Source of the DNA: Candidatus Thorarchaeota archaeon
GTDB lineage: Archaea > Asgardarchaeota > Thorarchaeia > Thorarchaeales > Thorarchaeaceae
Direction of reading: 5' to 3'
Length of the DNA: 47,989 bases
Assembly: GCA_029856425.1 (NCBI GenBank)
Contig: JAHQWZ010000001.1
Coordinates: forward strand, 1 to 47,989
A program made the position numbers and the translations under genes. Shown here one piece after another: positions 7,938-44,349 of this stretch. Positions within the stretch are counted from its first letter, which is position 1. Each line of letters opens with the position of its first letter. A model generated the notes under the pieces. It had not been told where the DNA came from. It did not search any database and saw only the letters and a list, made by a program, of their open reading frames with translations.

Positions 7938-8354
7938 CTATTTTTCAAGGAGTGTACGGAAGATGTTATGATGGTCTTCCTCATCAGCCAGAATGTCTTC
8001 AAACAACTCTCGTGTGACGTAGTCCTTCTCGTTCGCTGCCTTCTCGATAATTGTGCGATAGAAATCCATTGTCTCCTCTTCAGCCATCATATCGTTGGTG
8101 ATCATCGATTCCGGAGTGTCACCAACAGTGATTTTTGCAGGATTTGTTGTGGGTATACCTCCAAGGTAATCCACACGTTCAGCTATGCTTTCTGCATGCT
8201 GCATCTCCTCAATTGCAATCTTCTTGAGTTCCTCAGCGATAGCGAGGTGATTGAATCCATAGATCCTCACATGCTGCCACATGTATTGGATGGATACTTG
8301 TAGCTCCAAACTGATCGCCTTGTTCAACATTTCAATAAGGTCTTTCGATGTCAT
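7938..8354 (-). CDS. bacterioferritin/ferritin-like four-helix-bundle protein
   Basis: LNKAISLELQVSIQYMWQH ... EEMQHAESIAERV ... AEEETM ... ADEEDHH gives di-iron E/ExxH ligand spacing. GGAGGT lies 5 nt upstream of the ATG. Confidence 0.8.
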   Translation of the reverse strand: MTSKDLIEMLNKAISLELQVSIQYMWQHVRIYGFNHLAIAEELKKIAIEEMQHAESIAERVDYLGGIPTTNPAKITVGDTPESMITNDMMAEEETMDFYRTIIEKAANEKDYVTRELFEDILADEEDHHNIFRTLLEK

Positions 8355-12201: not shown

Positions 12202-12783
12202 CTAAATTGCCACCGTTTTTGACTTCTTTTTATCCCAGCCTAACTTCTTTGCCTTCTTGAAGGCAGAGCTCGCCTCATCGTATCGACCCAATATCCACAG
12301 GGCAAGTCGAAGCTGATTCCATAGCTCGGGATCATTTGGCTTCTTTTCAAGCTCGACCGATAGTCCCTTTTCCATTCTTCCGTATCTTTCAATCTCTCTT
12401 TGACTTGCTACCTGAGCCGCCCTGAGAACTCCGCTTACGAACTCTCCAGGGCGTTCTAGAACATAGGATTGAAATTCCATGGGTGTTTCTTTGAGAAATG
12501 AGCTGATCGTAGCTCCAGGTGTGTCCTTCTCCCGCCGAAGGTCGCCGTCTAATAATCGACGCTCATAATCACTTTGCATGAAATTGAGAAGTTCCTCCAA
12601 ATGGACTACAACTGGATCATTCTCACCAAGATTCTCGTTAGCCCTCTGCCACTCATAGTATACTACTTCAGTACCAATTGTGTATAAACCGCTAGGCGTT
12701 AGATTCATTTTCTTCAAGTCATTAAGGAGAGTCCTCACAGTATAGATATCTCTGATAGGAATTTTACGGCTCATTTCATTCAT
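12202..12783 (-). CDS. hypothetical protein with TPR-like C-terminal helix pair
   Basis: C-terminus reads PELWNQLRLALWILGRYDEASSAFKKAKKLG, which is TPR-like. The N-terminal domain is unassigned. Confidence 0.5.
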   Translation of the reverse strand: MNEMSRKIPIRDIYTVRTLLNDLKKMNLTPSGLYTIGTEVVYYEWQRANENLGENDPVVVHLEELLNFMQSDYERRLLDGDLRREKDTPGATISSFLKETPMEFQSYVLERPGEFVSGVLRAAQVASQREIERYGRMEKGLSVELEKKPNDPELWNQLRLALWILGRYDEASSAFKKAKKLGWDKKKSKTVAI

Positions 12784-13447: not shown

Positions 13448-13885
13448 CTATGAGACCTCCTCTTGCCCTTCATATTGATTTAGTCCTATTAGGAACTCAA
13501 ATGGATCTCCATCCACCATTTCCGCTGACAACCGAAGAGCGAATATATCATGTTGCATTGGTGCGAAATTCAGTTCAACATCACCTGATATCAGTACTCT
13601 CTTCAAGCTCATGTGGGGCGGCCATTGACCAGTCCTTTGGATGTAGTCCATAGCACGATTTGACAGAATCTCGCTGGCAATTCTTTTGTTTATTCTAACT
13701 AGGCCTTTTTCACTTACGATGCCGAAGGAAGTGTTACTATCGCTCATTCCGCGTTTGGAAATTGTGTTTGTCTTTCTCAAGATAATTGAGTTGATAGAAG
13801 CGCGTTTCTTGACTCGTTCAACAGCGAAAGTATCGGCATCTATCGAGTATGCTCGACCAAAATCAATCTCCACCCAATCTACCAT
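13448..13885 (-). CDS. hypothetical protein; paralogue of the N-terminal domain of the zf-PARP protein
   Basis: MVDWVEIDF..VKKRA..SFGIVSEKGLV..AMDYI..WPPHMSLKRVLISGDVE aligns by eye with IVDWVAIES..VKKRA..SLGIVGETGIV..ALDYM..WPPFTSMKRVLNSGDVE of 14423..15181. Confidence 0.6.
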   Translation of the reverse strand: MVDWVEIDFGRAYSIDADTFAVERVKKRASINSIILRKTNTISKRGMSDSNTSFGIVSEKGLVRINKRIASEILSNRAMDYIQRTGQWPPHMSLKRVLISGDVELNFAPMQHDIFALRLSAEMVDGDPFEFLIGLNQYEGQEEVS

Positions 13886-13977: not shown

Positions 13978-14400
13978 CTAGTCTATCCTGACCTTGTACC
14001 CCTTGCCTTCCTTCGTGTCAGTAGTCTTTAGCGTGATTTCTAGAATTCCATTGTTGAAACTAGCTTTGACCTTTGTAGGCTCAATTTCCTTCGAAAGGGA
14101 GAAAATTCTCTTATACTTCCGGGTTTCACTCTCAGCTACAATAATCAGAGTCGACCTGGTGACCGTGATTTCTATCTCATCTTTGCTAACGCCCGGTAGC
14201 TCAAATGTCACTATGGTGTCACCGGTCTTTTCGTCAACTCTCATCTCAGATAGCGGAGTTCGAAAACCTTCCTCCAGTCTTTTTGTCCATTCCAATGGAT
14301 ATCTCATCATTGACCTGAATGCTCTTTCTAAATCTGACAGACCAAATACATCGAATGGATTTCGTCTTTCAACAATGTCTCTTTTCTCGTCATCACTCAT
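13978..14400 (-). CDS. hsp20: Hsp20/alpha-crystallin small heat-shock protein
   Basis: IVTFELPGVSKDEIEITV ... FNNGILEITL is an alpha-crystallin domain. Start chosen at 14400 (MSDDEKRD) because GGAGGGGG lies upstream. Confidence 0.85.
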   Translation of the reverse strand: MSDDEKRDIVERRNPFDVFGLSDLERAFRSMMRYPLEWTKRLEEGFRTPLSEMRVDEKTGDTIVTFELPGVSKDEIEITVTRSTLIIVAESETRKYKRIFSLSKEIEPTKVKASFNNGILEITLKTTDTKEGKGYKVRID

Positions 14401-14422: not shown

Positions 14423-15181
14423 CTAATTTGCAAGAAGCCGTTTCAGCCGCTGTCTATCTTCTGATTTGAGAAAATCATATCCATCCAGCTTTTCGATTTC
14501 AGATGCGTCTATCCTTTTCGCAACACATCTTGGATGGTGCCATCTGTAAGAGAGCTTTTCTTCATAGAAATAGGGTTCACCTATTCGTAGTCTACGCTCC
14601 AAAATAACATCTTTGCACGTGCGGCATTTTGACCTTCCAGATTTAGCAGTTTCAACTTTCCATAATGGTTCTTTTGGTGTTTCATGTTTCTTTAACCGAC
14701 TTAGAAAATCGCTTGGATCTTCCCCAACCATCTCTTTAGTCAATGGGAGTACAAAGGAGTCATACTCAGTGGGCTCATAGTAGACCTCCACGTCTCCCGA
14801 ATTTAGGACTCTTTTCATTGAAGTGAATGGCGGCCATCTCTTCTTCCAGCGCATGTAATCAAGAGCCTGTTTGGCAAGTGTATCACTTGCATCTTTCTTT
14901 TTTAACGCGACTATTCCCGTTTCTCCAACTATGCCCAATGAAGACTTGACATATGTTCTCTCTTCATCATCAAGCGTTTCCCTGCTCTTCAACACAATGA
15001 CTGTGCCAACAGGAGCACGTTTCTTCACATGCTTGAAGCTGAAGGATTCTGGGTCTACCCAGTATGCCCACTCGGATTCAATAGCAACCCAATCCACTAT
15101 TCCCATGTTTTGTTGATTTCCTTTAGGTCGAGAATGGTTTACACTTCCCTTCAGCACGTCGTCCACCCATATTGCATACAA
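14423..15181 (-). CDS. unknown N-terminal domain fused to a C-terminal PARP-type zinc finger
   Basis: C-terminus AKSGRSKCRTCKDVILERRLRIG...YRWHHPRCV...LDGYDFLKSEDRQRL gives CX2C-X26-HX2C. By homology with the paralogue, the start may instead be MGIVDW at 15106. Confidence 0.7.
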   Translation of the reverse strand: MYAIWVDDVLKGSVNHSRPKGNQQNMGIVDWVAIESEWAYWVDPESFSFKHVKKRAPVGTVIVLKSRETLDDEERTYVKSSLGIVGETGIVALKKKDASDTLAKQALDYMRWKKRWPPFTSMKRVLNSGDVEVYYEPTEYDSFVLPLTKEMVGEDPSDFLSRLKKHETPKEPLWKVETAKSGRSKCRTCKDVILERRLRIGEPYFYEEKLSYRWHHPRCVAKRIDASEIEKLDGYDFLKSEDRQRLKRLLAN

Positions 15182-15201
15182 TTGTATTCATACGTATGCA
15201 A
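15172..15201. promoter_or_regulatory. nested palindromes TTGCATACAATTGTA / CATACGTATG (outer arms TTGCATAC...GTATGCAA)
   Basis: Read directly. Lies just downstream, in the minus sense, of the TATA-like TTATAAAT at 15217-15224, at the head of the zf-PARP/hsp20 genes. Confidence 0.5.
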
Positions 15202-15294
15202 AATGTAATCAAATAGTTATAAATCTGTTTACAGACTATTTGGTGGCCGCTGTCTTTACAATGCCTGAATTTACAGAGATAATACTCAGGAACC

Positions 15295-15465
15295 TCAAGA
15301 AGACCTCCGATTGTTAGCCCTATCAATTTCCTCATGATGATCGAGATGAGATCGTATTGCTTCTCTCACAAAGGAGGCAAAGCCCTTCCAGGATTCTTTC
15401 TTCTCCAAATTCTCAAAACGATTCTTTAGTTCTTTTGGCACTCTAATCATAATGTCGCTAGTCAT
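15295..15465 (-). CDS. ribbon-helix-helix (CopG/Arc/MetJ-type) DNA-binding protein
   Basis: MTSDIMIRVPKELKNRFENL ... SFVREAIRSHL is an RHH pattern. The internal start at 15465 has AGGAAG 8 nt upstream. Confidence 0.65.
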   Translation of the reverse strand: MTSDIMIRVPKELKNRFENLEKKESWKGFASFVREAIRSHLDHHEEIDRANNRRSS

Positions 15466-15496: not shown

Positions 15497-15545
15497 TTGC
15501 ATACAATTGTAGATATATTTATATACATTTTGTTTACATACGTAT
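15497..15545. promoter_or_regulatory. second copy of TTGCATACAATTGTA plus an ATACGTAT palindrome flanking a TATA-like box
   Basis: 15497-15511 is identical to 15172-15186. ATATATTTATATA is at 15513-15525 and ATACGTAT at 15538-15545. Upstream of the RHH gene, divergent from 15586..15960. Confidence 0.5.
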
Positions 15546-15585
15546 ACATTGGTTCTGATGACTTCATAGTCAGAGCCAGATTGAG

Positions 15586-19216: not shown

Positions 19217-19717
19217 ATGACGTCAAATGATTCGAATCCTCCTGAGGTGGGCGAGCCAGCCCCAGACTTCGCCTTGCTATCCACTGAAGGTGAAACGTTA
19301 CAACTGCTTTCTCTAGAAGACAGTCCCATTGTCTTGTTCTTTCTTACTGATACCTTCACCTTCTTCTCGCGCGGGTTCTCCAAGATTTTCGAATCTCTTC
19401 ATGAATCACTCCGTATGGTTGAGGTGACTGTTGTTGGTGTATCTACTGAACCAGTTGAAACACTGTGCACATTCGTTGAGCATGCGAAGATTCCTTACAT
19501 TCTGCTCAGTGACTTTGACCGTCAGGTATCTAAAGCATATGGCACGCTGACAGAGCGAATCGCAGGACTGACGATGGTCACCCGTGCAGGGGTGTTTGTT
19601 ATAGACAAGAAGGGGAAGATCGCATACAAATGGATTCATGATGAACAGAGTCCTGCTCCAGATGCTGACCAGATAGTTGATTTGATCTCAACACTCCAAA
19701 GCCAGGAAGGCAGCTAG
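19217..19717 (+). CDS. AhpC/TSA (Bcp-like) thioredoxin-fold protein lacking the peroxidatic Cys
   Basis: GEPAPDFALLSTEG ... VLFFLTDTFTFFSRGF ... VVGVS ... ILLSDFDRQVSKAYG aligns with Bcp. The TxxC position reads TFFS. Confidence 0.65.
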   Translation: MTSNDSNPPEVGEPAPDFALLSTEGETLQLLSLEDSPIVLFFLTDTFTFFSRGFSKIFESLHESLRMVEVTVVGVSTEPVETLCTFVEHAKIPYILLSDFDRQVSKAYGTLTERIAGLTMVTRAGVFVIDKKGKIAYKWIHDEQSPAPDADQIVDLISTLQSQEGS

Positions 19718-26108: not shown

Positions 26109-27239
26109 CTACTCTGTTTCTGAACCCTCTGCTCTCTTGATACGCTCTCGAATAGCCTCTATATGTTTACCTTTCTGCTCTAATTCATCCTTCTTTCGCT
26201 GGTTTGTCTTCACATATTCGTCATATGCATCTGCCCACTCTTGCCTTGTCTTACTGATTTGCCGTTTCAGATGTTCATACATCATTCTCTTGACATGCAC
26301 AGTATTTCTCAAATTGAGAAGGGCTGTATCCAGTCCCGATATGACGTTCGTTAGTTCCGATTCAGCTCTCTTCAGCTCAGCATGTAGATTGACAATCTCG
26401 GCTGATGGTCGTTCAACCTGTTCTATTTGAGGAGCAGAATCGGATGCTGACAATACAGTTCTATCAACTTCAGGTCCACTCTTCTCCAAAGGAAATACCG
26501 TTTCACTGCTTCTAGCCTCATCTGGTATTGAAGGTGCTATGAAATCAGAATTGGGCGTCTGCTGGATCTGAGCTTGCTCTGGAGAAGTAGGTTGTACATC
26601 TTCTATGGGAGTGGGCTTATCTTCTCGAAGTTTTGTAGGTGCAATCTTCTTCAAACCAATGAGACGGCCATCTGCTTTGTCAATCATCATTTCAGCAAGT
26701 TTCTTGAAGGCCTCATCTATATTCTCTCCAGTCAATGCTGATGCCTCGATGAAGATGGACGGGGTATTCATCTTCTCACCAAATCTCTCCGTGAATTCCA
26801 ACCCTTCCTCGTATGATACGGTTTCTTCTTTCGGATGATTTGGCCTTAGGTCGATCTTGTTACCAACGATAATGAGAGGGGGTAGATCGCCCATGAATCC
26901 GTGGGCTTCAACAAGCCATTTTGATGCATTGTCGAAGGATTCTCTGTCTACCACGGAATACACAAGAATCAGACCACTACTTCCATCATAATACCGTCTT
27001 CGGAGGCCTTGAAACAGAGGTTGGCCAGCGATGTCCCAGATTATCAAATAAATGGGTTTCTTATCCATCTGAAGAGTTTTCTGGGCAAAATCCACTCCCA
27101 GAGTCGCGATGTAACTTCTCTTGAATACTTGGCCTAAAAATGTTCGACGAATACTCGTCTTTCCTACAAATCCGTCGCCAATCAAGCAAACCTTGAACTG
27201 CTTACGGAGAGGGTCGAGTGAAATAGATATTCCCTCCAT
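26109..27239 (-). CDS. Rab/Ras-superfamily small GTPase with a roughly 190-aa linker and coiled-coil C-terminal extension
   Basis: G1 GDGFVGKTS, switch I TLGVDF, G3 WDIAGQ, G4 GNKIDL, G5 EASALTG. A P/S/E/Q-rich linker and a heptad-rich tail follow (NLHAELKRAESELTN...EQKGKHIEAIRERIKRAE). No CaaX or CC terminus. Confidence 0.85.
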   Translation of the reverse strand: MEGISISLDPLRKQFKVCLIGDGFVGKTSIRRTFLGQVFKRSYIATLGVDFAQKTLQMDKKPIYLIIWDIAGQPLFQGLRRRYYDGSSGLILVYSVVDRESFDNASKWLVEAHGFMGDLPPLIIVGNKIDLRPNHPKEETVSYEEGLEFTERFGEKMNTPSIFIEASALTGENIDEAFKKLAEMMIDKADGRLIGLKKIAPTKLREDKPTPIEDVQPTSPEQAQIQQTPNSDFIAPSIPDEARSSETVFPLEKSGPEVDRTVLSASDSAPQIEQVERPSAEIVNLHAELKRAESELTNVISGLDTALLNLRNTVHVKRMMYEHLKRQISKTRQEWADAYDEYVKTNQRKKDELEQKGKHIEAIRERIKRAEGSETE

Positions 27240-28674: not shown

Positions 28675-28694
28675 TAATGAATACTGATTCACTT
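28675..28694. promoter_or_regulatory. near-consensus copy TAATGAAT-ACTG-ATTCACTT of the ATGAAT-N4-ATTCAT palindrome
   Basis: 14 of 16 positions match the consensus. Overlaps the first ATG (28677) of the hdrC ORF at the head of the hdr cluster. Confidence 0.3.
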
Positions 28695-29285
28695 GACACC
28701 AGTCGCTTAATGAGGAACCAATTTAAGCTGCGGTTCGCAAAATGCGAGTTGATAGATTTGACTCCTAGTAGCGTATCGTCTGACCTTGAGTTTAGGAACT
28801 GGATTCTCAGACAACCAGAAGGGAAAACACTGCGAAGATGTTATCAATGCGGACGGTGCACTGGGGCATGTCCAATCGCTGAGATTGACCAATCGTTCAA
28901 TCCACGTCTTTTCCTTGAGAAAGTCATATTGGCAGATGAGTCTCTTGCGGAGAACCAACTCATCTGGACTTGTCTGACCTGTGAGCAATGTGAGGTGAGA
29001 TGTCCCGAACATGTCAAGATACCTCAGATATTGATACTCGCTAAGGTCAGGGGTTTGGTGGCAGGCAACACTCCCCAAACTGCATTAGACAGAGCCCGGA
29101 CCATCTTGTCAGAGGGTCGTACAATCCAAGTCAGTGACCCTATGCTCAAGACTCGTGATAAGATGGGTCTCCCTTCTCTTGGAAGCCCACCTGTTAAGCA
29201 GCTTGCTGAGGCTCTCAAGGACCTAGGTCTTGTTGAGAAGCTCGAGAATATCGAGTCAATTTATGGAGGCGATAGGGATGAGTAA
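28677..29285 (+). CDS. hdrC: heterodisulfide reductase subunit C-like (2x[4Fe-4S])
   Basis: CYQCGRCTGACP and CLTCEQCEVRCP. The start is uncertain; the in-frame ATG at 28710 is possible. Confidence 0.8.
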   Translation: MNTDSLDTSRLMRNQFKLRFAKCELIDLTPSSVSSDLEFRNWILRQPEGKTLRRCYQCGRCTGACPIAEIDQSFNPRLFLEKVILADESLAENQLIWTCLTCEQCEVRCPEHVKIPQILILAKVRGLVAGNTPQTALDRARTILSEGRTIQVSDPMLKTRDKMGLPSLGSPPVKQLAEALKDLGLVEKLENIESIYGGDRDE

Positions 29286-30180
29286 AGCGATTGAATACAC
29301 TTACTTTCCCGGCTGCATGATCCCCTTCAGACTTCCGCACTTTGAGCTAACAATGCGCGAGGTTCTAAGGCGTCTGAATATCGAGCTGATCGCGGACGAA
29401 GGACACACTTGCTGTCCTGAGCCAACCACCTTTACAGGAGTGGATTATGAGGCATGGCTGACTGTTGGGGCTAGAAACATTGCAGTTAGTGAGTCCACTG
29501 GAAGAGACACAATGGCACTGTGTAGTGGTTGTTTCCATACTCTATCTATGGTCAGGTACACACTTCAATCTGACAATGAAACTCGAGAGCGGCTAAATAA
29601 GAGGCTAAAAAGAATCGGCATGATAGCCACGGGAGAGGTAGCTGTAAAAAACATCTTGCATGTCTTGCATGAGGATGTAGGCCTAGAAAGGATTCGAAAG
29701 AGCATAGTTCAACCTCTCAAGAACCTCTCTATTGCAGCCCACTATGGGTGTCATCTCGTAAGGCCAATTGAAGCGACCCATATGGATGATGCAGAGGACC
29801 CGATGTGGATGGAAGATCTGATTGAGGTGACAGGTGCCAAGCCAGTAGACTATCCTGATAAGATGGCATGCTGTGGAGCGCCAATCTCTCCCTCGGATGA
29901 GTCTAAGTCTTTTGTTCTAGCGGGTGAGAAGTTGCTAAAGATACGAGATGCAGGTGCTGATGCCATCGTGTTAGTGTGTCCAACCTGTTATACCCAGATG
30001 GAGATGCAGCAGAAGAAGGCTATCGAACATCTGGACCCAGAATTTAGCCTTCCTATTCTCTATCTGGGTGAGATGATGGCTCTTGCGATGGGAATGTCCG
30101 ACCTGGTTGTAGAAAATGCCAGGAGATACCATCGAGTGAAGATTCAGCCTTTGCTGGAGAAGATGGGAGTTGGTAAGTGA
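29278..30180 (+). CDS. hdrB: heterodisulfide reductase subunit B-like (two CCG domains)
   Basis: FPGC...CCPEP...CSGC and YGCH...CCGAP...CPTC. GGAGG lies 8 nt upstream of the ATG at 29278. Confidence 0.85.
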   Translation: MSKAIEYTYFPGCMIPFRLPHFELTMREVLRRLNIELIADEGHTCCPEPTTFTGVDYEAWLTVGARNIAVSESTGRDTMALCSGCFHTLSMVRYTLQSDNETRERLNKRLKRIGMIATGEVAVKNILHVLHEDVGLERIRKSIVQPLKNLSIAAHYGCHLVRPIEATHMDDAEDPMWMEDLIEVTGAKPVDYPDKMACCGAPISPSDESKSFVLAGEKLLKIRDAGADAIVLVCPTCYTQMEMQQKKAIEHLDPEFSLPILYLGEMMALAMGMSDLVVENARRYHRVKIQPLLEKMGVGK

Positions 30181-31445
30181 TGGGGGATACAGTCATAGTT
30201 GTTGGCGCTGGCCTAGCAGGAATACAGGTTTCCCATCAACTGGCTGATTTGGGCTTGAGAGTCCACCTTGTAGAGAAAGAGGCCACTGTGGGAGGGCTCT
30301 CTGCACATCTTGGAAAGGTATTTCCCACAGATGACTGTGCTCTATGTCTTGATGCATGTGAAGAGTTGTTTAGTGGGCATCATCGGAGATGTCAGTATCG
30401 AAGCCTTCTAGGAACTCAGAAAAAGCTAAGTCTTCATACTCTGACTGAAGTAAGATCAATCAAGCACGAGGGTGACAAATTTTCTGTCTCTCTAAAAACA
30501 ACGCCAAGGTATGTACTACTCGATAGGTGTGTTGTCTGTCTAGAATGCATCAATGTCTGTGATGTTGAAGTTCCTGATGAGTTGAATCTAGGTAGAGTTC
30601 TTAGAAGGGCTGTGTATCGCCCAATTCCACAAGGAGTTCCTCTCGCTCCTATTATTGACATGAACTCATGCACAAAGTGCAGCAAGTGCGTTGATGTTTG
30701 TAAAGTCGATGCCATCGACTTGGAGCAGAAGTGCAAAACCCGGACCATTAAGGCTGATGCTGTGGTCTTGGCGACAGGAGTAGAGGAAAGTTCTCCTAGT
30801 GTACTACCTGGTTATGCTTATGGCCATTGCGAAGACGTTCTTACACAGAGAGAGCTCGGTCGTCTTCTGGACTCAGCGGGACCGAGCAATGGAAAAGCCC
30901 TTACCGCATCAGGAAGGCAAGTAGGGTCAGTAACAATGATACTCTGCGCTGGCAGCAGAGACCTGAATGCAGTAGAGTATTGCTCACGGGCATGTTGCAC
31001 ATATAGCCTGAAACATGCAATCATGCTCAGAGAACAGGGTGTAGATGTGACGATTTGCTACATGGATCTTCGTGTTCCAACTCATAGCCAGAGTTTTCTC
31101 GAGCGTGCAAGGGAATCAGATGTGACTTTTGTGAGAGGGAAGCCAGATCATGTAGTAGTCCGTGAAGGATCTCCTGTGACCATTGTTGAAGACACTGAAT
31201 CTCAGAAACGCTTAGAGATAGAATCAGACCTTGTCGTTCTTGCCTCGCCATTAGTACCTCATGCCGCTGAGCGTGAAGTCTTCAATTCATTTCTTGACAA
31301 GTATGGATTTGCTGCACGTCACAATGCACTAAAGGGTATCTACGCCTGTGGGACCTCTACGGGTGCAAATGACATTCCCGGAAGTGTTGCAGAGGCCAAT
31401 TCCGTTGCGTTAGAAGTCTACATGGCCCTGAAAGGAGGTGCTTAG
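30177..31445 (+). CDS. HdrA-like FAD-dependent oxidoreductase with inserted 2x[4Fe-4S] ferredoxin domain (short form)
   Basis: VIVVGAGLAGIQVSHQLADLGLRVHLVEKE (FAD/NAD Rossmann), CVVCLECINVC and CTKCSKCVDVC. Confidence 0.75.
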   Translation: MMGDTVIVVGAGLAGIQVSHQLADLGLRVHLVEKEATVGGLSAHLGKVFPTDDCALCLDACEELFSGHHRRCQYRSLLGTQKKLSLHTLTEVRSIKHEGDKFSVSLKTTPRYVLLDRCVVCLECINVCDVEVPDELNLGRVLRRAVYRPIPQGVPLAPIIDMNSCTKCSKCVDVCKVDAIDLEQKCKTRTIKADAVVLATGVEESSPSVLPGYAYGHCEDVLTQRELGRLLDSAGPSNGKALTASGRQVGSVTMILCAGSRDLNAVEYCSRACCTYSLKHAIMLREQGVDVTICYMDLRVPTHSQSFLERARESDVTFVRGKPDHVVVREGSPVTIVEDTESQKRLEIESDLVVLASPLVPHAAEREVFNSFLDKYGFAARHNALKGIYACGTSTGANDIPGSVAEANSVALEVYMALKGGA

Positions 31446-33410
31446 ATGAAGAAGCTGTTCCTCTGCACCTGCAATGGTACTCTGAATAAGCTGTTAGACT
31501 TCACGAGAATCGGGAAAGAAGCAAAAGCCATCTATGATGTAGTTGAGGTTGCAGACAATCTCTGTCTAGAGGAGGGGCTTGCGGAACTGGAAAAAGGGCT
31601 CTCAGGAGACGACAGACTCGTCATAGGCGCCTGTAGTTCCCAGATTATTGGTGTCCCTATGAAGCAAAGAATCAAGAATGACCTTGTTGCGTTCGTTCCA
31701 CTGAGAGAGCAAGTGGGATGGGTCCACCTTGAAGAGGGGGAGTCTGCCACCAACAAGGCGATTGTGCTACTATCTGATGCAGCAGTGCAATTGGATTATA
31801 TGGAGTCACAAGCCGAGTTCACTGAGAACATGGTAGGTCGAGTTCTTGTCATAGGGGGCGGTATTGCAGGTTTGAAAGCGGCCTCAGACCTCCATCGACT
31901 GGGTGTTGAGGTAACTCTCTTAGAACCATTCAAGCTGGATAAACACCACTATCTCCAGACCAGTGTCTTCATGAGCGACGCTGACACACTCAGGAGTGAG
32001 ATTCAAGAAATTCAGAAGACCATCTTAGATGTAGAAAGGATTCGGGGCGAAATTCGTGAGGTCAGAGGGCAGCTGGGCTCCTATGAAGTCACTATAAATG
32101 GTGCTAAGGATGGCAGCATGACCCAAGAATTTGGTGCCATAATAATCGCTTCGGGAAACCAACAGTCTTTGCCAAGTTCAGCAAAGAAGATGCGTTACGG
32201 GAAGTCCGAACGTGTTGTAACTCTTGATAGTCTTATATCAAATTCAAAGAAGAAACGTGCCAAGGATAGATCCACAATCCTCGTGGCAGTTGATTTTGAT
32301 GCCCCTATGTCCTCGGTGGAGGGGAGCCATCTCCTTAGAACCACCAGGGACCTAGCAGCTCGGGGCAACACAATCATTGTCGTATACTCTGACATTCAGA
32401 CTGAGGATGAAAACCTCTACCGAGAGGCACGTGACTCTGGAGTCATATTCATACGCGGTAGGGTAACTCGTATCAAGGAGAATGATAAGGGCCTCTCCTG
32501 CCGTATCGAGAATACTCTGGAGTCAATGCAGAGAGATGTCATAGCAGATCGTGTAGCAATCCCTCGGCTGATTGGGCCAACTATTGAAACAACACAAATT
32601 GCTGAAAAACTGGGAGTGGAATGTGACGATAGTGGTTTCATCAGAACCAGATATAGCAAGATGAAGCCAGTCCAAACCTCTAGACGTGGCATCTTTGTGG
32701 CTGGTGGTGCGAAGATGCCAATGAGTCTATCTGATGCCATGGCTTCTGCTCAGAATGCTGTCCTTGAGGCCTTCAAGATAGTACGATCCCCCCTGGTCCG
32801 CTCGGGATGGATTCCAGTTATAGACGATGAGGAATGCGATGTCTGTAAGGCATGTTTGGATGCATGCCCGAATGATGCACTACGACTGATGGATGATCGA
32901 ATAGTGCATATTCCAGCACACTGTGAATTCTGTGGTATCTGTGTGTCTGCATGTCCGACTCGGGCAATCGAGTTTCAGTCTCACAGTAAAGAGAGCTGGT
33001 TTGCACGGTTTGAGGCAATAGCAGCCACTCATAAACGACTTGAGGGAAAAAAGCCATTCTCACTCGTATTTGCATGTAGCGAGTGTGCCAATGCATCAAT
33101 TGACCAGGCCGGGTTTGTCGGCAAGCAGTATGGCACAGGAAGTTACGTCATTCAATTTCCATGTGCTGGTATGGTTTCACCAATTGAGATTCTCAAAGGT
33201 CTAGTTGTTGGGGCCAATCGTGTCATTGTAGCACATTGCCCACCCGGTGGATGCCATCACCAGACTGGTGATCATCTCTCAGAGCTCGTTGTCAGCCTTA
33301 CCAGAGATATGTTACGAGAGATAGGACAGAATCCAGACCGTGTTCGAGCCACATACATGATGGCAGCAATGCCTGACAAGATGCAGAAGGAGGTGCCAGT
33401 CCGTGGATAA
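31446..33410 (+). CDS. HdrA-like flavoprotein fused to a C-terminal MvhD-like domain
   Basis: N-terminal FLCTCNGTL, Rossmann VLVIGGGIAGLKAASDL, ferredoxin CDVCKACLDACP/CEFCGICVSACP. The C-terminal FACSECAN...FPCAGMVSPIEILKGL...VAHCPPGGCHH is MvhD-like. Confidence 0.8.
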   Translation: MKKLFLCTCNGTLNKLLDFTRIGKEAKAIYDVVEVADNLCLEEGLAELEKGLSGDDRLVIGACSSQIIGVPMKQRIKNDLVAFVPLREQVGWVHLEEGESATNKAIVLLSDAAVQLDYMESQAEFTENMVGRVLVIGGGIAGLKAASDLHRLGVEVTLLEPFKLDKHHYLQTSVFMSDADTLRSEIQEIQKTILDVERIRGEIREVRGQLGSYEVTINGAKDGSMTQEFGAIIIASGNQQSLPSSAKKMRYGKSERVVTLDSLISNSKKKRAKDRSTILVAVDFDAPMSSVEGSHLLRTTRDLAARGNTIIVVYSDIQTEDENLYREARDSGVIFIRGRVTRIKENDKGLSCRIENTLESMQRDVIADRVAIPRLIGPTIETTQIAEKLGVECDDSGFIRTRYSKMKPVQTSRRGIFVAGGAKMPMSLSDAMASAQNAVLEAFKIVRSPLVRSGWIPVIDDEECDVCKACLDACPNDALRLMDDRIVHIPAHCEFCGICVSACPTRAIEFQSHSKESWFARFEAIAATHKRLEGKKPFSLVFACSECANASIDQAGFVGKQYGTGSYVIQFPCAGMVSPIEILKGLVVGANRVIVAHCPPGGCHHQTGDHLSELVVSLTRDMLREIGQNPDRVRATYMMAAMPDKMQKEVPVRG

Positions 33411-34317
33411 ACGGGGGCGTCTTATTCAAAAGATTCGTAACATCGCAGTGCAGACTCCTACTCATATCTTGGAAGTCCCTGAGAAGGTGGAGGGATTTGG
33501 GAGCATCAATTACAAACCGGAGTCATGTAGTGCATGCAAGAAGTGCATTGAGGCATGTGAGGTTGAAGCTCTGGACATAGACCTCATGGTGCAATTGCCA
33601 GCTTATCTGAGTGCCATAATACCTGAAGAAGGGTTCAGGTCCAAGAACCGTGAAACATTGATATCTCTTCTTCAGATTCTGAAGGGGGAGGGCGATGTTC
33701 AGGCAATCCCAGTTCCTTCTGGTCTGTCTGGATATGGATCAGTGGTCTGGATCACTGAGAAATGCATAGCATGCAACAAGTGCGTTGAAGCTTGTCCAGA
33801 AGACTGCCTCGACCTAGAGAAGAAGTATGACCTACCAACAATCATTGGCAATGTAGTGACTCCTCCTTCAATTTCCATTACTGAGTGGGAGCCGTTCGTA
33901 ATTTGCTTTGTATGCTGGGAGTGTTCCCATGCAGCCGCTGACCTAGCAGGACTCATGCACCTACATTATCCTGCCAACATACGAACTGTGAGGGTGCCGT
34001 GTAGTGGTGCAGTTGAGCCTATCCAGATAATGACCGCCATGGAGAATGGTGTCGATGGGGTATTGGTCACGGGATGCCTTCTCTCCGAGTGTCATTATGG
34101 TGGTGATGATCCTCTAGCTGGCAACTTCATGCAGCAAGACTTTGTTCACTTCTGGCAAAGCGTGTTTAAGGAGATAGGTCTAGGCGGGCGACTGCATATC
34201 GATTTCGCATCTGCTGCTATGGGAATTAGGTTTGCAGAGATAGTCACAGAATTTGTTGAACAAATTAGGAAGATAGGACCGAGCCCCTTGAGAGGAAAAT
34301 TGGAGGTGGAATCCTAG
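33403..34317 (+). CDS. 2x[4Fe-4S] ferredoxin domain fused to an MvhD-like domain
   Basis: CSACKKCIEACE and CIACNKCVEACP, then FVCWECSHAAADLAG...VPCSGAVEPIQIMTAM...VTGCLLSECHY. GTG start with GGAGGT 7 nt upstream. Confidence 0.8.
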   Translation: MDKRGRLIQKIRNIAVQTPTHILEVPEKVEGFGSINYKPESCSACKKCIEACEVEALDIDLMVQLPAYLSAIIPEEGFRSKNRETLISLLQILKGEGDVQAIPVPSGLSGYGSVVWITEKCIACNKCVEACPEDCLDLEKKYDLPTIIGNVVTPPSISITEWEPFVICFVCWECSHAAADLAGLMHLHYPANIRTVRVPCSGAVEPIQIMTAMENGVDGVLVTGCLLSECHYGGDDPLAGNFMQQDFVHFWQSVFKEIGLGGRLHIDFASAAMGIRFAEIVTEFVEQIRKIGPSPLRGKLEVES

Positions 34318-34318
34318 A

Positions 34319-36349
34319 ATGCCTAAGAAGAAGGATGAGCATCGAATTGGTGTCTTCATTTGCAGTTGCGGGACCAATATCGGAGGAGTAATCGACGTCA
34401 GAAAACTTGCCCGAGATTTCAAGGATTATCCTGGGGTTACGTTCACAACCTCCAATATGTTCACCTGCTCAAAGGATGGTCAGGACAAGATAGCTGAGAT
34501 GATCAAAGAGAAGGATCTAACAGGAGTCGTCATTGGGGCATGCACACCCAAGCTCCACGAACAGCTATTCAGAGAGATTCTGGAGGAGAATGACCTCAAT
34601 CCATTCCGGCTAGCCCAAGCAAATCTGCGTGAGCATGATACTTGGGTTCATGGTGATGATCCAGAGGTCGCCTATAAGGTCGCTTACGATTTGGTGGCGG
34701 GTGCAATTGAACGAGCCAAAACACTCGAGGACATTGGATTTGAGGAGTATCCAGTGGACAAGAGTGTCCTCGTGATAGGTGCGGGAATTGCAGGAATTCA
34801 ATCTGCTCTCGATTTGGCAGACAAAGGAATCAAGGTCTGTCTTGTAGAGAAATACACGTCAATCGGAGGCTACATGGCGCGTCTGGAGAAGACATTTCCA
34901 ACACTCGACTGTTCAATGTGTATTCTCTCTCCAAAACTATCAGCAGTTGAACGCCACAAGAATATTGAGATACTCAGCTATTCAGAAGTCATCGAAGTCG
35001 AGCGCGACTATGGGAATTTCAACGTCAGGGTCAAAAAGAAGCCCAGATACGTTAGTATTGAGGACTGTATCAACTGTGGAGCCTGTGAACGCAATTGCCC
35101 TGTTACAGGCCGAGCTGAGTGGAATCTCGGGCTCGGAGATCGAAAAGCAATCTACAAGCCCTTCCCGCAAGCGGTCCCTGGTGTTTTCTTCCTTGATAAG
35201 GACTCATGTACGCATTGGACAGATGGGTGCACCATCTGTGCTGAGAAGTGTCCACGCGACGCCATCTCGTATGACGTGGAGATAGAAGAGATTGAAATCA
35301 AAGTGGGAGCTATAATAGCCGCTACCGGCTTTGTCGAGATGGATATTGAGGAGCTATCTGAATATGGCGGAGGCAAGTTTACCAATGTATTGACCGCAGG
35401 CCAGTATGGACGCCTCCTGAGTCTCGTTGGGCCAACTGAGGGAAAGATTCTCCTACCTCCAAGCTTTGAACAGAGTCCTAAACGCATTGCCTATATCAAT
35501 TGTGCGGGATCGCGTGATGAGAACCATAGACCGTGGTGCTGCAACTTCGGCTGTATGTACACACTCAGGCATGCTGAGATGACACACAGACTCTACGGTG
35601 ACGACATTGACCAGTGGATAATCTATCATGAGCTTCGTGCAGGTGGCAAGGAATACGAGCAGTTCTACAGAAGAGTGAGAGAGAGTGGCGTACGATTCGT
35701 CCGAGGCTTTCCAAGCGAAATGATTGAAGAGAAGGATGGTAGTATCAGCTTCTCGGTGTTTGATCAAGGGACTGGGAGTCTGCTACGCCTTAACTTCGAC
35801 ATGGTGGTTTTGACAATGGCCATTGATCCATCACCAGGAACGGCACATCTTGCGCACATGCTGGGTGTAGACCGGAGTGAAGGTGGCTTCATGAAGGAAC
35901 TCCATCCGAAGCTCGAGCCAGTCAATACGAAGTCTAGGGGAGTTTTCATTGCGGGAGCCTGTCAGAGTCCCAAGGACATACCTGCAAGCGTTGCTGACGG
36001 CAAGGCTGCAGCGAGTGCAGCAGCATCACATGTTCTCAAGGGAAAGGTCCGTGTACAGATGGACAAAGCAGTTGTAGATGAAACTCTATGCATTGGATGT
36101 GGGCTATGCGAAAAGGTCTGCCCGTTCGATGCAATCTCCATGACCGTGCGTGATGACGAGCGTCAGCTTGCTGAAGTAAGTTCAATACTGTGCACTGGCT
36201 GCGGCAAGTGTCAGGTGGTTTGCCCAATAGGAGCCATCAAACGAAAGCACTTCACGACTGAACAGATAGAGGCTGAGGTCCTAGGTCTCATCTCCGCACA
36301 CAGGAAACGAGAACAGTCTGCGAAGACATCCGGAGGTGTATCATCATGA
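34319..36349 (+). CDS. hdrA: heterodisulfide reductase subunit A (full length)
   Basis: IGVFICSCGTNIGGVIDV, VLVIGAGIAGIQSALDLADKG, several ferredoxin CxxCxxCxxxCP motifs. 676 aa. Confidence 0.9.
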   Translation: MPKKKDEHRIGVFICSCGTNIGGVIDVRKLARDFKDYPGVTFTTSNMFTCSKDGQDKIAEMIKEKDLTGVVIGACTPKLHEQLFREILEENDLNPFRLAQANLREHDTWVHGDDPEVAYKVAYDLVAGAIERAKTLEDIGFEEYPVDKSVLVIGAGIAGIQSALDLADKGIKVCLVEKYTSIGGYMARLEKTFPTLDCSMCILSPKLSAVERHKNIEILSYSEVIEVERDYGNFNVRVKKKPRYVSIEDCINCGACERNCPVTGRAEWNLGLGDRKAIYKPFPQAVPGVFFLDKDSCTHWTDGCTICAEKCPRDAISYDVEIEEIEIKVGAIIAATGFVEMDIEELSEYGGGKFTNVLTAGQYGRLLSLVGPTEGKILLPPSFEQSPKRIAYINCAGSRDENHRPWCCNFGCMYTLRHAEMTHRLYGDDIDQWIIYHELRAGGKEYEQFYRRVRESGVRFVRGFPSEMIEEKDGSISFSVFDQGTGSLLRLNFDMVVLTMAIDPSPGTAHLAHMLGVDRSEGGFMKELHPKLEPVNTKSRGVFIAGACQSPKDIPASVADGKAAASAAASHVLKGKVRVQMDKAVVDETLCIGCGLCEKVCPFDAISMTVRDDERQLAEVSSILCTGCGKCQVVCPIGAIKRKHFTTEQIEAEVLGLISAHRKREQSAKTSGGVSS

Positions 36350-36888
36350 CGGAAACTGGTGAAAAGAAGGGATTACCAGATGTCTTCATAGAACCTATCA
36401 ATATGTCTGAACTTGACAGAGGCTTTAGGAAAGAGATTCAGAGCATGCCAAATGGAGAAGAGCTGTCAGCATGCTTTGCCTGTTCGACCTGTACCTCTGC
36501 TTGTCCAGTTGCAAATATCTGGGAGATAAAACCACACCAGCTGATTCGGATGATCATCCTTGGCATGCGTGAAAAGGTTCTTTCCTCCAAAGAGATCTGG
36601 CTCTGTCTGACTTGCTTTGAGTGTCAGGAAAGATGTCCACAAGGTGTTCGGGTCACAGACATTTTCTTTGACTGCAAAAATCTTGCCGCTGAAGAGAATA
36701 TGATACCTGACAGCATAGTCGCCCTCGGGAAGGAGCTCCTTGAGAAAGGTCAGCTCTATATTGTGACTGCTGACTGGGAACGAGAAGATTTGGACTTGGA
36801 ACCCGATGTTCCTGGACTGTCCACTGATGCGGTAAAACGAGTCCTTGGTGGGACTCGTACGGGACGACTTGTCAAAGGAGGCAAATAG
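36346..36888 (+). CDS. hdrC: heterodisulfide reductase subunit C-like (second copy)
   Basis: CFACSTCTSACP and CLTCFECQERCP. ATGA overlap with hdrA. Confidence 0.85.
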   Translation: MTETGEKKGLPDVFIEPINMSELDRGFRKEIQSMPNGEELSACFACSTCTSACPVANIWEIKPHQLIRMIILGMREKVLSSKEIWLCLTCFECQERCPQGVRVTDIFFDCKNLAAEENMIPDSIVALGKELLEKGQLYIVTADWEREDLDLEPDVPGLSTDAVKRVLGGTRTGRLVKGGK

Positions 36889-36889
36889 G

Positions 36890-37756
36890 ATGTCTATCTA
36901 TAGTCTCTACATGGGCTGCAGTGTTCCTGCAAACTACCCCAATTATGAGGCCTCGATGCTCAAGGTTGCCGAGTCCTTTGAACTGACCCTAGAATACCTG
37001 AATGATGTGGCATGCTGTGGTAGTCCAAATCTGAGGGCTATGGACTACTGGGGATGGGCTCTGGTTAATGCACGAACACTAGCATTGGCTGACATTACAG
37101 AGCATGACATTGTGACTCCCTGTAACGGTTGTTTTGGCAGTCTAAAGGATGTATATCATCTACTAAAGCATGATACAGAATATAGAACCAGCATTAATGT
37201 CGAGCTCGAAGCAGAGGGTCTTGAGTTTACAGGGACAAGTAGGCCGCGACATTTCATTGAGGTCCTCTATACAGATGTGGGTCTTGATTCAATAAGGAAG
37301 AAGATTTCAAAGCCACTTGATGGTGTTGGTATAGCAATTCATTATGGATGTCATCTTCTGCGCCCTGGGGACGTGACTGAGATCACACCAGAAGTCCTAA
37401 GCGAGCTCGTCAGAGTCACAGGCGCACACGTAGTCGAGTATCCACTATGGAAGCAATGTTGCGGAGCCACTGTACTACCGGTTGATGAGGCTCTGGCAAT
37501 AAGACTTGCTCGAGATAAACTCAAGTCAATGAAGGAAGCAGGTGCTGCATTTGTCACAGTTGTCTGCCCTGCATGCTGCAATCAATTGGATCTTCAGCAG
37601 CTAGGACTACGAGAGTTATATGGTGAGAAGTTCGACCTTCCAATCCTGTTCTACCCTCAAATACTCGGCCTTGCATTGGGTTTTGATGAGGATGAGGTGG
37701 GCCTTGGCATGAATAGAGTACCCGCGAAGCCGATTCTCCAGCACTTCTCCAAATGA
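36890..37756 (+). CDS. hdrB: heterodisulfide reductase subunit B-like (second copy)
   Basis: MGCSVP...CCGSP...CNGC and YGCH...CCGAT...CPACC. GGAGG lies 8 nt upstream of the ATG at 36890. Confidence 0.85.
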   Translation: MSIYSLYMGCSVPANYPNYEASMLKVAESFELTLEYLNDVACCGSPNLRAMDYWGWALVNARTLALADITEHDIVTPCNGCFGSLKDVYHLLKHDTEYRTSINVELEAEGLEFTGTSRPRHFIEVLYTDVGLDSIRKKISKPLDGVGIAIHYGCHLLRPGDVTEITPEVLSELVRVTGAHVVEYPLWKQCCGATVLPVDEALAIRLARDKLKSMKEAGAAFVTVVCPACCNQLDLQQLGLRELYGEKFDLPILFYPQILGLALGFDEDEVGLGMNRVPAKPILQHFSK

Positions 37757-43845: not shown

Positions 43846-44349
43846 CTAGACCATTGCAATTCTATATGGGACATAGTCTGTCATCTGCACTTCTTTGCCA
43901 AGTAGTCGTAGCCCCATAGCAATCTGACCTCGATGATAGGCTGCATGATTGACAAGGTGGAAGAAGATCTCTTCGAAGCCTATTGTGATGTCTTTGCCTT
44001 TGCTATCAAATGTAATCTCGTTTGCTAGTCGGTCTTCAATCATGTCGATGAACTTGTGCATGTAATCAGTTAAGAACCCAAAGAGTGCCTCTCTCTCCAT
44101 TCCCTCGAAATTCGGTTTGTTTTGCGGATCCTTGTCAATCCAGTCGTAATACCACTCCCAGGTGTCCTGTGCAAGATGGATATACCGCTTCTTGATGCTG
44201 CCACCCCTTTCTCCAAGAGGTCTATCGAATTCCTCTTTACTCAGCCTTTGTACTAACTCCCAAATCGTTTTGTCAGCCCAGACAAGATACTGACCCATTC
44301 TCTGTAGAAGATTCATGCCACACATCCCGTGATTCATCCAAATAAACAT
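43846..44349 (-). CDS. DinB-family four-helix-bundle protein
   Basis: YLVWADKTIWELV...YIHLAQDTWEWY...FFHLVNHAAYHRGQIAMGLRLLG. The exact start is uncertain. Confidence 0.75.
   Translation of the reverse strand: MFIWMNHGMCGMNLLQRMGQYLVWADKTIWELVQRLSKEEFDRPLGERGGSIKKRYIHLAQDTWEWYYDWIDKDPQNKPNFEGMEREALFGFLTDYMHKFIDMIEDRLANEITFDSKGKDITIGFEEIFFHLVNHAAYHRGQIAMGLRLLGKEVQMTDYVPYRIAMV

Follow-up and report, generated by a model that had tools for sequence, protein, structure and literature searches.

A C-terminal PARP-type zinc finger fused to a domain of no known family in a thorarchaeal protein encoded beside a small heat-shock protein

Introduction

The PARP-type zinc finger (zf-PARP) lets PARP1 and DNA ligase III locate DNA breaks and is regarded as essentially eukaryotic. 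The characterised fingers of both proteins recognise DNA structure rather than sequence. Asgard archaea are the closest prokaryotic relatives of eukaryotes. A survey from 2014, which predates the Asgard genomes, listed no PARP in archaea (PMC4245714). Eukaryotic zf-PARP proteins that carry neither a PARP nor a ligase domain are already known: a scallop protein combines the finger with PC4 (PMC9223095), and separate PADR1+zf-PARP proteins of Tetrahymena have been proposed to aid finger-less PARPs (PMC6502085).

Here we describe a zf-PARP protein encoded by an archaeon. Relatives of it already bear the NCBI name “PARP-type zinc finger-containing protein”. These entries, from Thorarchaeota, Promethearchaeota and Hodarchaeales MAGs, are orthologues or paralogues with 28% to 62% identity, and the name covers the finger only, not the domain that precedes it (here called X). 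Our literature search for zf-PARP in archaea or Asgard archaea found nothing relevant, and no paper was found on domain X, the wider X family, the X paralogue, the hsp20 operon or the regulatory arrangement described below.

Results

The window (the whole 47,989-nt stretch of DNA that was analysed) comes from Ca. Thorarchaeota SMTZ1-83, and one protein encoded near the gene of interest is 100% identical to a protein of this archaeon. The gene, designated X-zfPARP, lies on the minus strand at 14423..15157 and encodes 244 aa from a GTG at 15157. The mechanical ORF extends further, to a TTG at 15181 (14423..15181, minus strand, 252 aa); this ORF is present as described before, and its C-terminal letters match the earlier quotation exactly. 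The annotated TTG start is probably wrong, and the sequence favours the GTG as the true start, because the GTG fits a conserved “M-L-K/N” start, an alignment of the promoters from 10 loci and a GGTGA resembling a Shine-Dalgarno sequence. In the promoter alignment, an ATG/GTG-TTG-AA start and the upstream GGTGA are kept across all 10 loci. A database protein (P0001) has the same 244-aa length and is 100% identical to the window protein.

The finger occupies 14435..14653 (minus strand), with ligands C178, C181, H208 and C211 in the 244-aa form, corresponding to C186, C189, H216 and C219 in the 252-aa form. Counted on the sequence, the ligands read C186-x2-C189-x26-H216-x2-C219, which is the CX2C-X26-HX2C layout given in the preliminary description. 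The match to PF00645 proposed there as a check scored 57.4 bits against a gathering cut-off of 39.3 (E 2.6e-15; residues 177–249 of the 252-aa form, profile positions 1–86 of 87), and the finger can be called a genuine zf-PARP; the 244-aa form scored 57.6 bits. The second check, conservation of the four zinc ligands, returned all four in 26 of 26 finger-bearing homologues of 40% to 70% identity. When the family profile was searched against the PDB, PARP1 F1F2 was matched at E 2.6e-21 and the DNA ligase III ZnF at E 1.5e-9. When only the finger was used as query, a word-indexed search of proteins returned one fragment.

Structural modelling, also proposed earlier, gave the same result. The AlphaFold2 (AF2) model of X-zfPARP has a mean pLDDT of 90.5, and its finger superposes on crystal structures of PARP1 Zn1/Zn2 (Foldseek E 1e-6 to 1e-5, TM(target) 0.64–0.78, rmsd 2.3–3.1 Å); the match to Lig3 (1uw0) had an E of 1.5e-3. 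The finger is basic (pI about 9.6). In the profile-to-PARP1 alignment, R183 aligns with R18 (the backbone-grip arginine of PARP1), R199 with the second arginine, R34, and Y206 with F44, the aromatic residue in the base-stacking loop (252-aa numbering). R191 (244-aa numbering) is almost invariant even within the divergent alignment. By sequence correspondence only, the finger retains residues that touch DNA in PARP1. Note that the Cys-to-His spacer is x26 here versus x28/x30 in PARP1, making the loop 2–4 residues shorter; given this departure from the characterised fingers, structure-specific binding should not be assumed.

The resemblance to PARP1 Zn1/Zn2 (F1/F2) thus comprises Pfam family, fold, CCHC ligand order, conserved arginines in the R18 and R34 positions, and an aromatic residue in that of F44. 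PARP1, however, has a tandem pair of fingers at its N terminus, whereas X-zfPARP has a single finger at its C terminus, lacks Zn3/PADR1, BRCT, WGR and catalytic domains, and belongs to an archaeal host. DNA ligase III is alike in carrying one zf-PARP finger on a protein that is not a PARP, but X-zfPARP lacks the ligase adenylation, OB and DNA-binding domains and, again, its finger is C-terminal. The eukaryotic PC4+zf-PARP and PADR1+zf-PARP proteins also join the finger to non-enzymatic modules; in contrast to these, Pfam shows no relation of X to PC4 or PADR1, and X-zfPARP is prokaryotic and encoded in an operon.

The preliminary description had placed the finger on a protein with no PARP catalytic or ligase domain, which agrees with zf-PARP being the sole Pfam match above cut-off. 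No ligase adenylation or OB domain was found in the protein or in the 40 largest ORFs of the window, and the same 40 ORFs yielded no PARP, macro, PARG or ligase domain. WGR was absent from the protein by Pfam, and 55 family members gave no WGR match even at E ≤ 10. A by-eye likeness between part of X and the WGR core of PARP1 was rejected: aligning an X profile of 93 sequences with the verified WGR sequence of PARP1 (hhalign) gave a probability of 0.56%. From sequence and model, the gene product is predicted to be a non-enzymatic two-module protein, composed of X and a PARP-type CCHC finger.

Domain X spans 14678..15106 (minus strand). It measures about 145 aa, not the ~170 aa estimated before; its earlier description as a domain of unknown function was borne out by searches of Pfam and NCBIfam, in which no family matched, and by Foldseek searches of the PDB and BFVD, in which no fold matched (best E 0.07–0.1, TM ≤ 0.3). 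The weak matches included PURA (E 0.099, TM 0.22), Dcp1 (0.14), talin F3 (0.3) and XLF (0.32), and the viral structure library (BFVD) contributed nothing significant (best E 0.097). PH-like, PUR/Whirly-like and XRCC4/XLF-head folds are unsupported by such matches (E ≥ 0.07, TM ≤ 0.3). In the AF2 model, X consists of an all-beta N-terminal half, a 19-residue helix, three further strands and two short helices, with pLDDT mostly 88–97. It is acidic (pI about 5.8). Conserved positions are mostly core hydrophobics; the conserved polar or special positions are K57, K87, PP109-110 and D133 only, and the alignment contains no conserved catalytic constellation. X may represent a new protein family and a new fold.

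The family is rare, an X profile search recovering 60 clusters among 1.84 billion representatives. Among 55 members scanned, 36 carry zf-PARP, five carry a SWIM finger instead, and one has an additional RPA32-C winged helix. X thus comes almost always with a finger of a type that binds DNA or protein. A Hodarchaeales protein has a tandem X-X-zfPARP arrangement in a single chain, and TPR-X arrangements occur in P0089 and P0080 (TPR above and below cut-off, respectively). The X matches in P0099 (PKD repeats) and P0102 (LRR, 1613 aa) look marginal or spurious. Members were found in Thor-, Hod- and Kariarchaeal MAGs, and further ones on high-GC contigs with bacterial-type genes, including a contig of 70.6% GC with a T2SS pseudopilin gene alongside. 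The family is likely not confined to archaea, comprising Asgard archaea and a few bacteria. A mobile-element origin of X-zfPARP was rejected, as tblastn against plasmids and phages gave no match.

A second X gene is present at 13448..13885 (minus strand). Its 145-aa product contains domain X only, aligns across the entire X domain of X-zfPARP with 40% identity and was scored by the X HMM at E 1e-49; its AF2 model has the same order of secondary-structure elements. In other MAGs this finger-less paralogue forms a stable subfamily of 145–161 aa, and a second X gene lies downstream both in the window and at loci L001, L004/5 and L009. From gene fusion and gene order only, we infer that X domains may act in pairs.

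Between the two X genes lies hsp20 (13978..14400, minus strand), with the finger-less paralogue just beyond it. The product has an alpha-crystallin domain (Pfam HSP20, E 8.4e-12) and scored 83.7 bits against the NCBIfam archaeal Hsp20 model, below its cut-off of 140. Co-transcription with X-zfPARP, suggested in the preliminary description, is plausible in the window, because the hsp20 ATG follows the X-zfPARP stop by 22 nt, a Shine-Dalgarno-like GGAGGGGG precedes that ATG, no terminator-like site was found on the strand of the two genes, and hsp20 lies within about 22–30 nt after X-zfPARP in 7 of 12 Thor-type genomes. The suggestion does not extend to the whole family, as the adjacency is missing in the other 5 close genomes and in all distant members.

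The remaining neighbours were also compared. A TPR-like protein of 193 aa (12202..12783, minus strand; TPR matches weak and below cut-off) is a conserved neighbour, with an orthologue of 66% to 81% identity near X-zfPARP in 8 of 12 genomes, and is tentatively linked to the X-zfPARP system. No DNA-repair gene was a conserved neighbour among the loci examined, and the neighbourhoods of distant members had no common theme. Some genes of redox-stress type are nearby: a ferritin-like gene adjoins one member of subfamily 2, and ferritin and AhpC genes are present in the window. Note that the genome-locus scan used alignment A1, the divergent alignment A3 being too variable, so the 14 genome loci are biased towards close relatives.

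Upstream of X-zfPARP is a gene for a small, probable ribbon-helix-helix (RHH) protein of 56 aa (15295..15465, minus strand), a candidate local repressor. Such a gene precedes X-zfPARP in all 11 loci having upstream DNA. The window protein scored 15.3 bits against RHH_1 (gathering cut-off 20.5), RHH_1 matched five of 10 orthologues below the Pfam cut-off (best E 0.001), and the top match in a PDB profile search was a CopG-family RHH protein (E 0.018). From the RHH stop at 15295 to the GTG at 15157 is about 137 nt; the interval is about 790 nt at locus L001, where a TPR gene separates them, and ~775 nt at L011. A second RHH copy beside an MFS gene, seen in L001, is absent from the window. A toxin-antitoxin module was rejected, since a separate promoter precedes the RHH gene, which sits ~137–790 nt upstream rather than adjacent or overlapping.

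The promoters of both genes contain conserved GTATAC-type boxes with a 10-bp period. The predicted X-zfPARP promoter/operator (15168..15233, minus strand) has a BRE/TATA-like TGTAAACAGATTTATAAC at 15233–15216, followed by GCATAC (15199–15194), GAATAC (15189–15184) and GTATGC (15179–15174). The arms 15168–15179 and 15194–15205 are 92% complementary, so the hexamers lie inside a near-palindrome of ~38 bp (15168–15205). These elements align across the 10 loci where the sequence reaches them, with the TATA element in 8 of 10 sequences. In the predicted RHH-gene promoter (15497..15548, minus strand), boxes are found on both sides of a TATA-like TGTATATAAATA: GTATAC (15547–15542) and GTAAAC (15537–15532) upstream, and ATCTAC and GTATGC (15514–15499) downstream. 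The two promoters share an exact 15-mer, TACAATTGTATGCAA, of which these are the only two exact copies in the window. Box pairs with at most two mismatches occur only in the two promoters and at one other site in 48 kb; at other places in the window, pairs with three mismatches are about as frequent as chance would give.

Short hexamers at a 10-bp period are typical of cooperative RHH binding on tandem repeats. The locus resembles those of RHH repressors (CopG/Arc/MetJ) in its short palindromic hexamers of that period and in the weak RHH matches of the 56-aa protein. It differs in that this protein stays below the Pfam cut-off and is encoded by a separate transcription unit, not in a toxin-antitoxin layout.

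Discussion

The reading we favour, with a probability of about 0.4, is that X-zfPARP is a repressor-controlled, non-enzymatic adaptor that binds DNA discontinuities and is made with a small heat-shock protein. The finger, by analogy with PARP1 and DNA ligase III, which contain the same fold, would anchor the protein to nicks, gaps and ends. X would be a protein-protein or oligomerisation module and would probably pair with a second X, supplied here by the finger-less paralogue two genes downstream and in Hodarchaeales by the fused X-X. As the conserved non-coding DNA suggests, the upstream RHH protein may repress both its own gene and the X-zfPARP-hsp20 operon through the 10-bp-periodic GTATAC-type boxes at or after the TATA box. 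X-zfPARP and the small heat-shock protein would be co-produced, and the latter is the sole pointer to stress as a possible trigger. The protein would thereby act as a DNA-lesion-binding adaptor or protector, with recruitment or shielding as its output and not ADP-ribosylation or ligation. A role as damage or stress sensor, as proposed in the preliminary description, is possible, judged only from the neighbours and from what zf-PARP does in PARP1 and ligase III.

Alternatively, the finger could be the DNA-binding domain of a transcription factor in which X senses a ligand, unfolded protein or redox state and which regulates the hsp20 operon or a stress regulon of wider extent. Conserved palindromic boxes do accompany the hsp20 operon that the gene heads, X looks like a sensor or adaptor of a non-catalytic kind, and zf-PARP and SWIM fingers are interchangeable in the family, with one member adding a winged helix. 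We nevertheless consider this doubtful: characterised zf-PARP fingers (PARP1, ligase III) read DNA structure, not sequence, the tandem boxes of 10-bp period, present on both sides of the TATA of the RHH gene as well, better suit an autoregulated RHH repressor, and neither hsp20 nor an RHH gene lies beside the distant family members.

The separate PADR1+zf-PARP proteins of Tetrahymena (PMC6502085) offer a precedent for a DNA-sensor subunit that acts in trans for an enzyme encoded elsewhere, such as an ADP-ribosyltransferase, ligase or nuclease. X looks like an interaction module, and the RPA32-C domain on one member is of a recruitment type. No such enzyme was found in the window (40 largest ORFs) or beside any family member examined, and the 2014 survey, though older than the Asgard genomes, had no archaeal PARP (PMC4245714), which makes this an unlikely explanation.

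Still harder to credit is a nucleic-acid chaperone or RNA-binding stress protein acting with Hsp20, its finger binding structured RNA or single/double-strand junctions and not DNA damage. It would account for the operon shared with a small heat-shock protein, and the top Foldseek match of X, a weak one, is the PUR-alpha repeat, a binder of single-stranded nucleic acid. That match is insignificant (E 0.1, TM 0.22), X is acidic and nothing in the data indicates RNA. Finally, the CCHC pattern might be accidental, the ORF mis-called, or the gene a decaying, functionless fragment acquired horizontally. The one argument for this is the prior that short Cys/His patterns arise by chance, and the reading is refuted by a Pfam score 18 bits over the cut-off, a finger structure that matches PARP1 fingers, 39 homologues that keep the ligands and full length, and a conserved promoter.

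Returning to the favoured adaptor, X-zfPARP occurs in several Asgard lineages, Hodarchaeales included. In its most far-reaching form, the proposal would be that X-zfPARP is a free-standing prokaryotic break sensor that predates, and was maybe the donor of, the finger of PARP1 and ligase III, that Thorarchaeota couple damage recognition to a small-heat-shock/proteostasis response under an RHH repressor, and that X is a new fold signalling through protein recruitment; taken as a whole, we regard this as rather unlikely.

What the locus provides is a PARP-type finger in Asgard archaea, and probably in some bacteria, with no enzyme attached and joined to a domain not described before. The RHH gene and operator, conserved in their arrangement, offer a regulatory circuit ready for testing in Asgard archaea, where we found no similar regulator described. 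If the finger still recognises breaks, the protein would be a simple and experimentally tractable model of enzyme-free break sensing, and the origin of the eukaryotic break sensor, whether by Asgard inheritance or by bacterial transfer, would become testable.

The zinc finger

The open reading frame at 14423..15181 (minus strand; 252 aa with a TTG start, by mechanical ORF call) carries the same C-terminal sequence that was quoted in the preliminary description, and the zf-PARP fold proposed there is borne out by Pfam. Residues 177-249 match PF00645 almost end to end (profile positions 1-86 of 87), with a score of 57.4 bits (E 2.6e-15; curated cut-off 39.3). The zinc ligands are arranged as C186-x2-C189-x26-H216-x2-C219. 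Because the Cys-to-His spacer is x26 here versus x28 and x30 in the two PARP1 fingers, the loop is slightly shorter than that of PARP1. From 39 homologues found by searching, 25 were aligned with the window protein, giving 26 finger-bearing sequences. All four ligands are kept in 26 of 26, at identities down to 40%, and loss of a ligand was not seen.

When a family profile was compared with PDB sequences, PARP1 F1F2 was recovered at E 2.6e-21, single PARP1 fingers at ~1e-10 and the DNA ligase III finger at 1.5e-9. An AlphaFold2 model built from the family alignment (mean pLDDT 90.5) was searched with Foldseek, and its C-terminal part matched the PARP1 Zn1 and Zn2 crystal structures (E 1e-6 to 1e-5, target-normalised TM 0.64-0.78, rmsd 2.3-3.1 Å). 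In PARP1, DNA is contacted by R18, which grips the backbone, by R34 and by F44 in the base-stacking loop; in the profile alignment R183, R199 and Y206 occupy these three positions. The finger is a zf-PARP member on every test run, by profile or by model, and these comparisons show a genuine PARP-type finger whose predicted DNA-contact positions are intact.

The protein is neither a PARP nor a ligase. As described previously, it has no catalytic domain of either kind, zf-PARP being its sole Pfam/NCBIfam domain, and a domain scan of the 40 largest window ORFs found no PARP catalytic, WGR, macro, PARG or DNA-ligase domain. Zf-PARP proteins without an enzyme have eukaryotic precedent, since scallop PC4 proteins carry the domain (PMC9223095) and Tetrahymena has PADR1+zf-PARP proteins separate from its PARPs (PMC6502085). 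A survey from 2014 found PARP in no archaeal genome (PMC4245714). We found no paper mentioning a zf-PARP finger in Asgard archaea; database annotation already names the finger.

The real start is most likely the GTG at 15157, which makes the protein 244 aa long. This codon is favoured because an identical 244-aa protein was on record in the homologue search, homologues start with MLK or MLN, and an ATG/GTG-TTG-AA start with a preceding GGTGA is conserved at its position in ten aligned upstream regions.

Domain X and its family

The finger was said to cap a domain of about 170 aa with no known function. That part, here called X, indeed matched no Pfam or NCBIfam family; its size is revised, as the modelled domain spans residues ~18-160 (AlphaFold2 pLDDT mostly 88-97). 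The model has an all-beta first half, then a 19-residue helix, three further strands and two short helices. Searched alone against the PDB and predicted viral structures, X gave nothing better than E 0.1 and TM 0.3; PUR-alpha, PH-like domains and XRCC4/XLF heads were weak structure matches and were not taken as evidence. A likeness to the PARP1 WGR domain, seen by eye, was also rejected: no WGR match occurred in 55 members, even at E<=10, and hhalign of an X profile of 93 sequences with the PARP1 WGR, whose sequence was verified, gave a probability of 0.56%. Conserved positions are nearly all core hydrophobics, and the polar or special ones (K57, K87, P109-P110 and D133) include no recognisable catalytic set. 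X is also acidic (pI ~5.8; the finger is basic, ~9.6). For these reasons we infer that X is a non-enzymatic interaction or oligomerisation domain.

An X profile searched against 1.84 billion cluster representatives matched only 60 proteins at E<=1e-3 (34 at E<=1e-10), and the family is therefore rare. By Pfam scan zf-PARP is present in 36/55 members, always C-terminal to X where coordinates were examined (16/16 multi-domain members). A SWIM zinc finger takes its place in 5/55 (P0092 from Kariarchaeaceae, P0101 and three others; best E 5.4e-7), and TPR repeats occur in two. In one member, the 471-aa metagenomic protein P0090, the finger is followed by an RPA32-C-type winged helix, in the order X-X-zfPARP-winged helix (PF08784; 23.5 bits, cut-off 22.6). 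Domains of this type recruit repair factors in eukaryotes. Tandem X domains are found in several members, including an X-X-zfPARP protein from Hodarchaeales. TPR-X arrangements occur in P0089, above the Pfam cut-off for TPR, and P0080, below it; a 1613-aa LRR protein (P0102) matched X only marginally (E 5e-5).

Close homologues all come from Thorarchaeota/'Promethearchaeota' MAGs, and several bear the NCBI name 'PARP-type zinc finger-containing protein'. When each GTDB species, represented by one genome, was scanned with the close-family alignment, 14 loci emerged, 13 in MAGs titled Thor-, Prometh- or Hermodarchaeota and one in an uncultured archaeon (L020, 30% GC). Members further removed carry the labels Hodarchaeales and Kariarchaeaceae, both of the Heimdall group. 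The family is probably present in bacteria too, judging from relatives on high-GC contigs (loci L021, L025 and L026) among genes for type-II-secretion pseudopilin, urocanase, glutathione S-transferase, HTTM and EF-hand proteins. The L021 member (GCA_029260755.1; 34% identity, 70.6% GC contig) adjoins the first three. Approximately 13 of the 60 representatives show an amino-acid composition of the high-GC type. Every long form (411-581 aa) is among them, and the long bacterial-type forms have 200-350 aa of N-terminal sequence without annotation. No relatives were found in plasmid and phage collections.

Neighbouring genes

The hsp20 gene (13978-14400, minus strand; Pfam HSP20 E 8.4e-12) begins 22 nt past the X-zfPARP stop and is preceded by a Shine-Dalgarno-like GGAGGGGG. 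Co-transcription of the two, proposed earlier, is made plausible by this gap, by the lack of a terminator-like site on that strand and by their adjacency in 7 of the 12 distinct Thor-type genomes; absence of the adjacency in the other 5 counts against it. The comparison shows an operon-like link in most close relatives. A further 92 nt beyond hsp20 lies a finger-less X paralogue (13448-13885, minus strand; 145 aa), which shares 100% identity with a protein from Candidatus Thorarchaeota archaeon SMTZ1-83. Finger-less members make up a stable subfamily that recurs in other MAGs. The closed genome CP070761 has, at the corresponding position, a gene that retains the finger.

At two loci (L004, 6788-8203; L005, 4390-5805) a 471-aa protein without a Pfam family, and not hsp20, lies between X-zfPARP and the finger-less paralogue. 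A 193-aa TPR-like protein (12202-12783, minus strand) accompanies X-zfPARP in 8/12 genomes (L001-L013), in shuffled positions. The neighbours of distant members are unrelated (they encode LRR proteins, peptidases, a VWA protein and an MmeI-type methylase), with LRR proteins adjoining two of them (L019, 2849-4048; L020, 4096-4788); no conserved repair gene was found beside those examined.

The 40 largest window ORFs include transporters, ferritin, peroxiredoxin, a ThiF-type enzyme and acetyl-CoA synthetase. Genes of the ferritin/rubrerythrin-like and AhpC peroxiredoxin kinds occur close to X-zfPARP genes (window 7938-8354, minus, and 19217-19717, plus; L006 5541-5957), and at L006 the gene immediately upstream of a subfamily-2 member is ferritin-like; these neighbours hint at an oxidative-stress neighbourhood. 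Also among the 40 are a 376-aa Ras-family small GTPase (26109-27239, minus; E 9e-41) with a long C-terminal extension, of a type typical of Asgard 'eukaryotic signature' genes, and a nine-gene heterodisulfide-reductase/MvhD-like cluster (28677-37756, plus) with duplicated CCG, Fer4, FlpD and pyridine-nucleotide-disulfide oxidoreductase modules. From the same set, near the far end, are a 498-aa N6/N4 DNA methylase-domain protein (41398-42894, plus) and a DinB-family protein (43846-44349, minus), for which no link to X-zfPARP was seen.

A putative operator

A protein of 53-59 aa is encoded upstream of X-zfPARP in 11/11 loci with enough sequence (in the window, 15295-15465, minus strand). RHH_1 matches in 5 of 10 orthologues are weak, repeated and all below the Pfam cut-off (best E 0.001), and the top PDB match is a CopG-family ribbon-helix-helix (RHH) protein (E 0.018).

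The X-zfPARP promoter region (15168-15233, minus strand) has a TGTAAACA-TTTATAAC element (15233-15216), and after it come three hexamers spaced at exactly 10 bp from one another, GCATAC (15199-15194), GAATAC (15189-15184) and GTATGC (15179-15174). A 38-bp near-palindrome encloses these hexamers and stops shortly upstream of the ribosome-binding site. This layout can be aligned in ten loci, the proteins of which share only 60-70% identity. In the promoter of the putative RHH gene (15497-15548, minus strand) GTATAC-type hexamers of the same kind flank the TATA-like box on both sides with a 10-bp period. The exact 15-mer TACAATTGTATGCAA is common to both promoters and has no other copy in the window, where box pairs with <=2 mismatches occur at both promoters and at one other, probable chance site. 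These boxes resemble an operator for a local repressor, probably of the RHH type; the simplest reading is that one such repressor would control its own gene and the X-zfPARP-hsp20 operon.

Proposed function

We favour, with a probability of roughly 0.4, a protein tethered to lesions by its finger, with X recruiting or pairing, and de-repressed with a small heat-shock protein. By analogy with PARP1 and ligase III, the finger would hold the protein at DNA discontinuities. X would recruit or pair with other proteins, the minimum partner being another X domain in view of the X-X fusions and the adjacent paralogue, and the unit would be de-repressed together with the small heat-shock protein.

It is unlikely that the finger is a plain DNA-binding domain and the protein a transcription factor. 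Somewhat more doubtful is a trans-acting sensor subunit serving an enzyme encoded elsewhere, and a role as an RNA or nucleic-acid chaperone is improbable. Chance or artefact can be dismissed.

What is new is domain X with its family, the exchange between zf-PARP and SWIM fingers, the paralogue lacking a finger, the hsp20 operon and the putative RHH/operator circuit. The function is predicted and automated annotation had partly captured the finding, which is a solid, somewhat surprising domain occurrence of evolutionary relevance.
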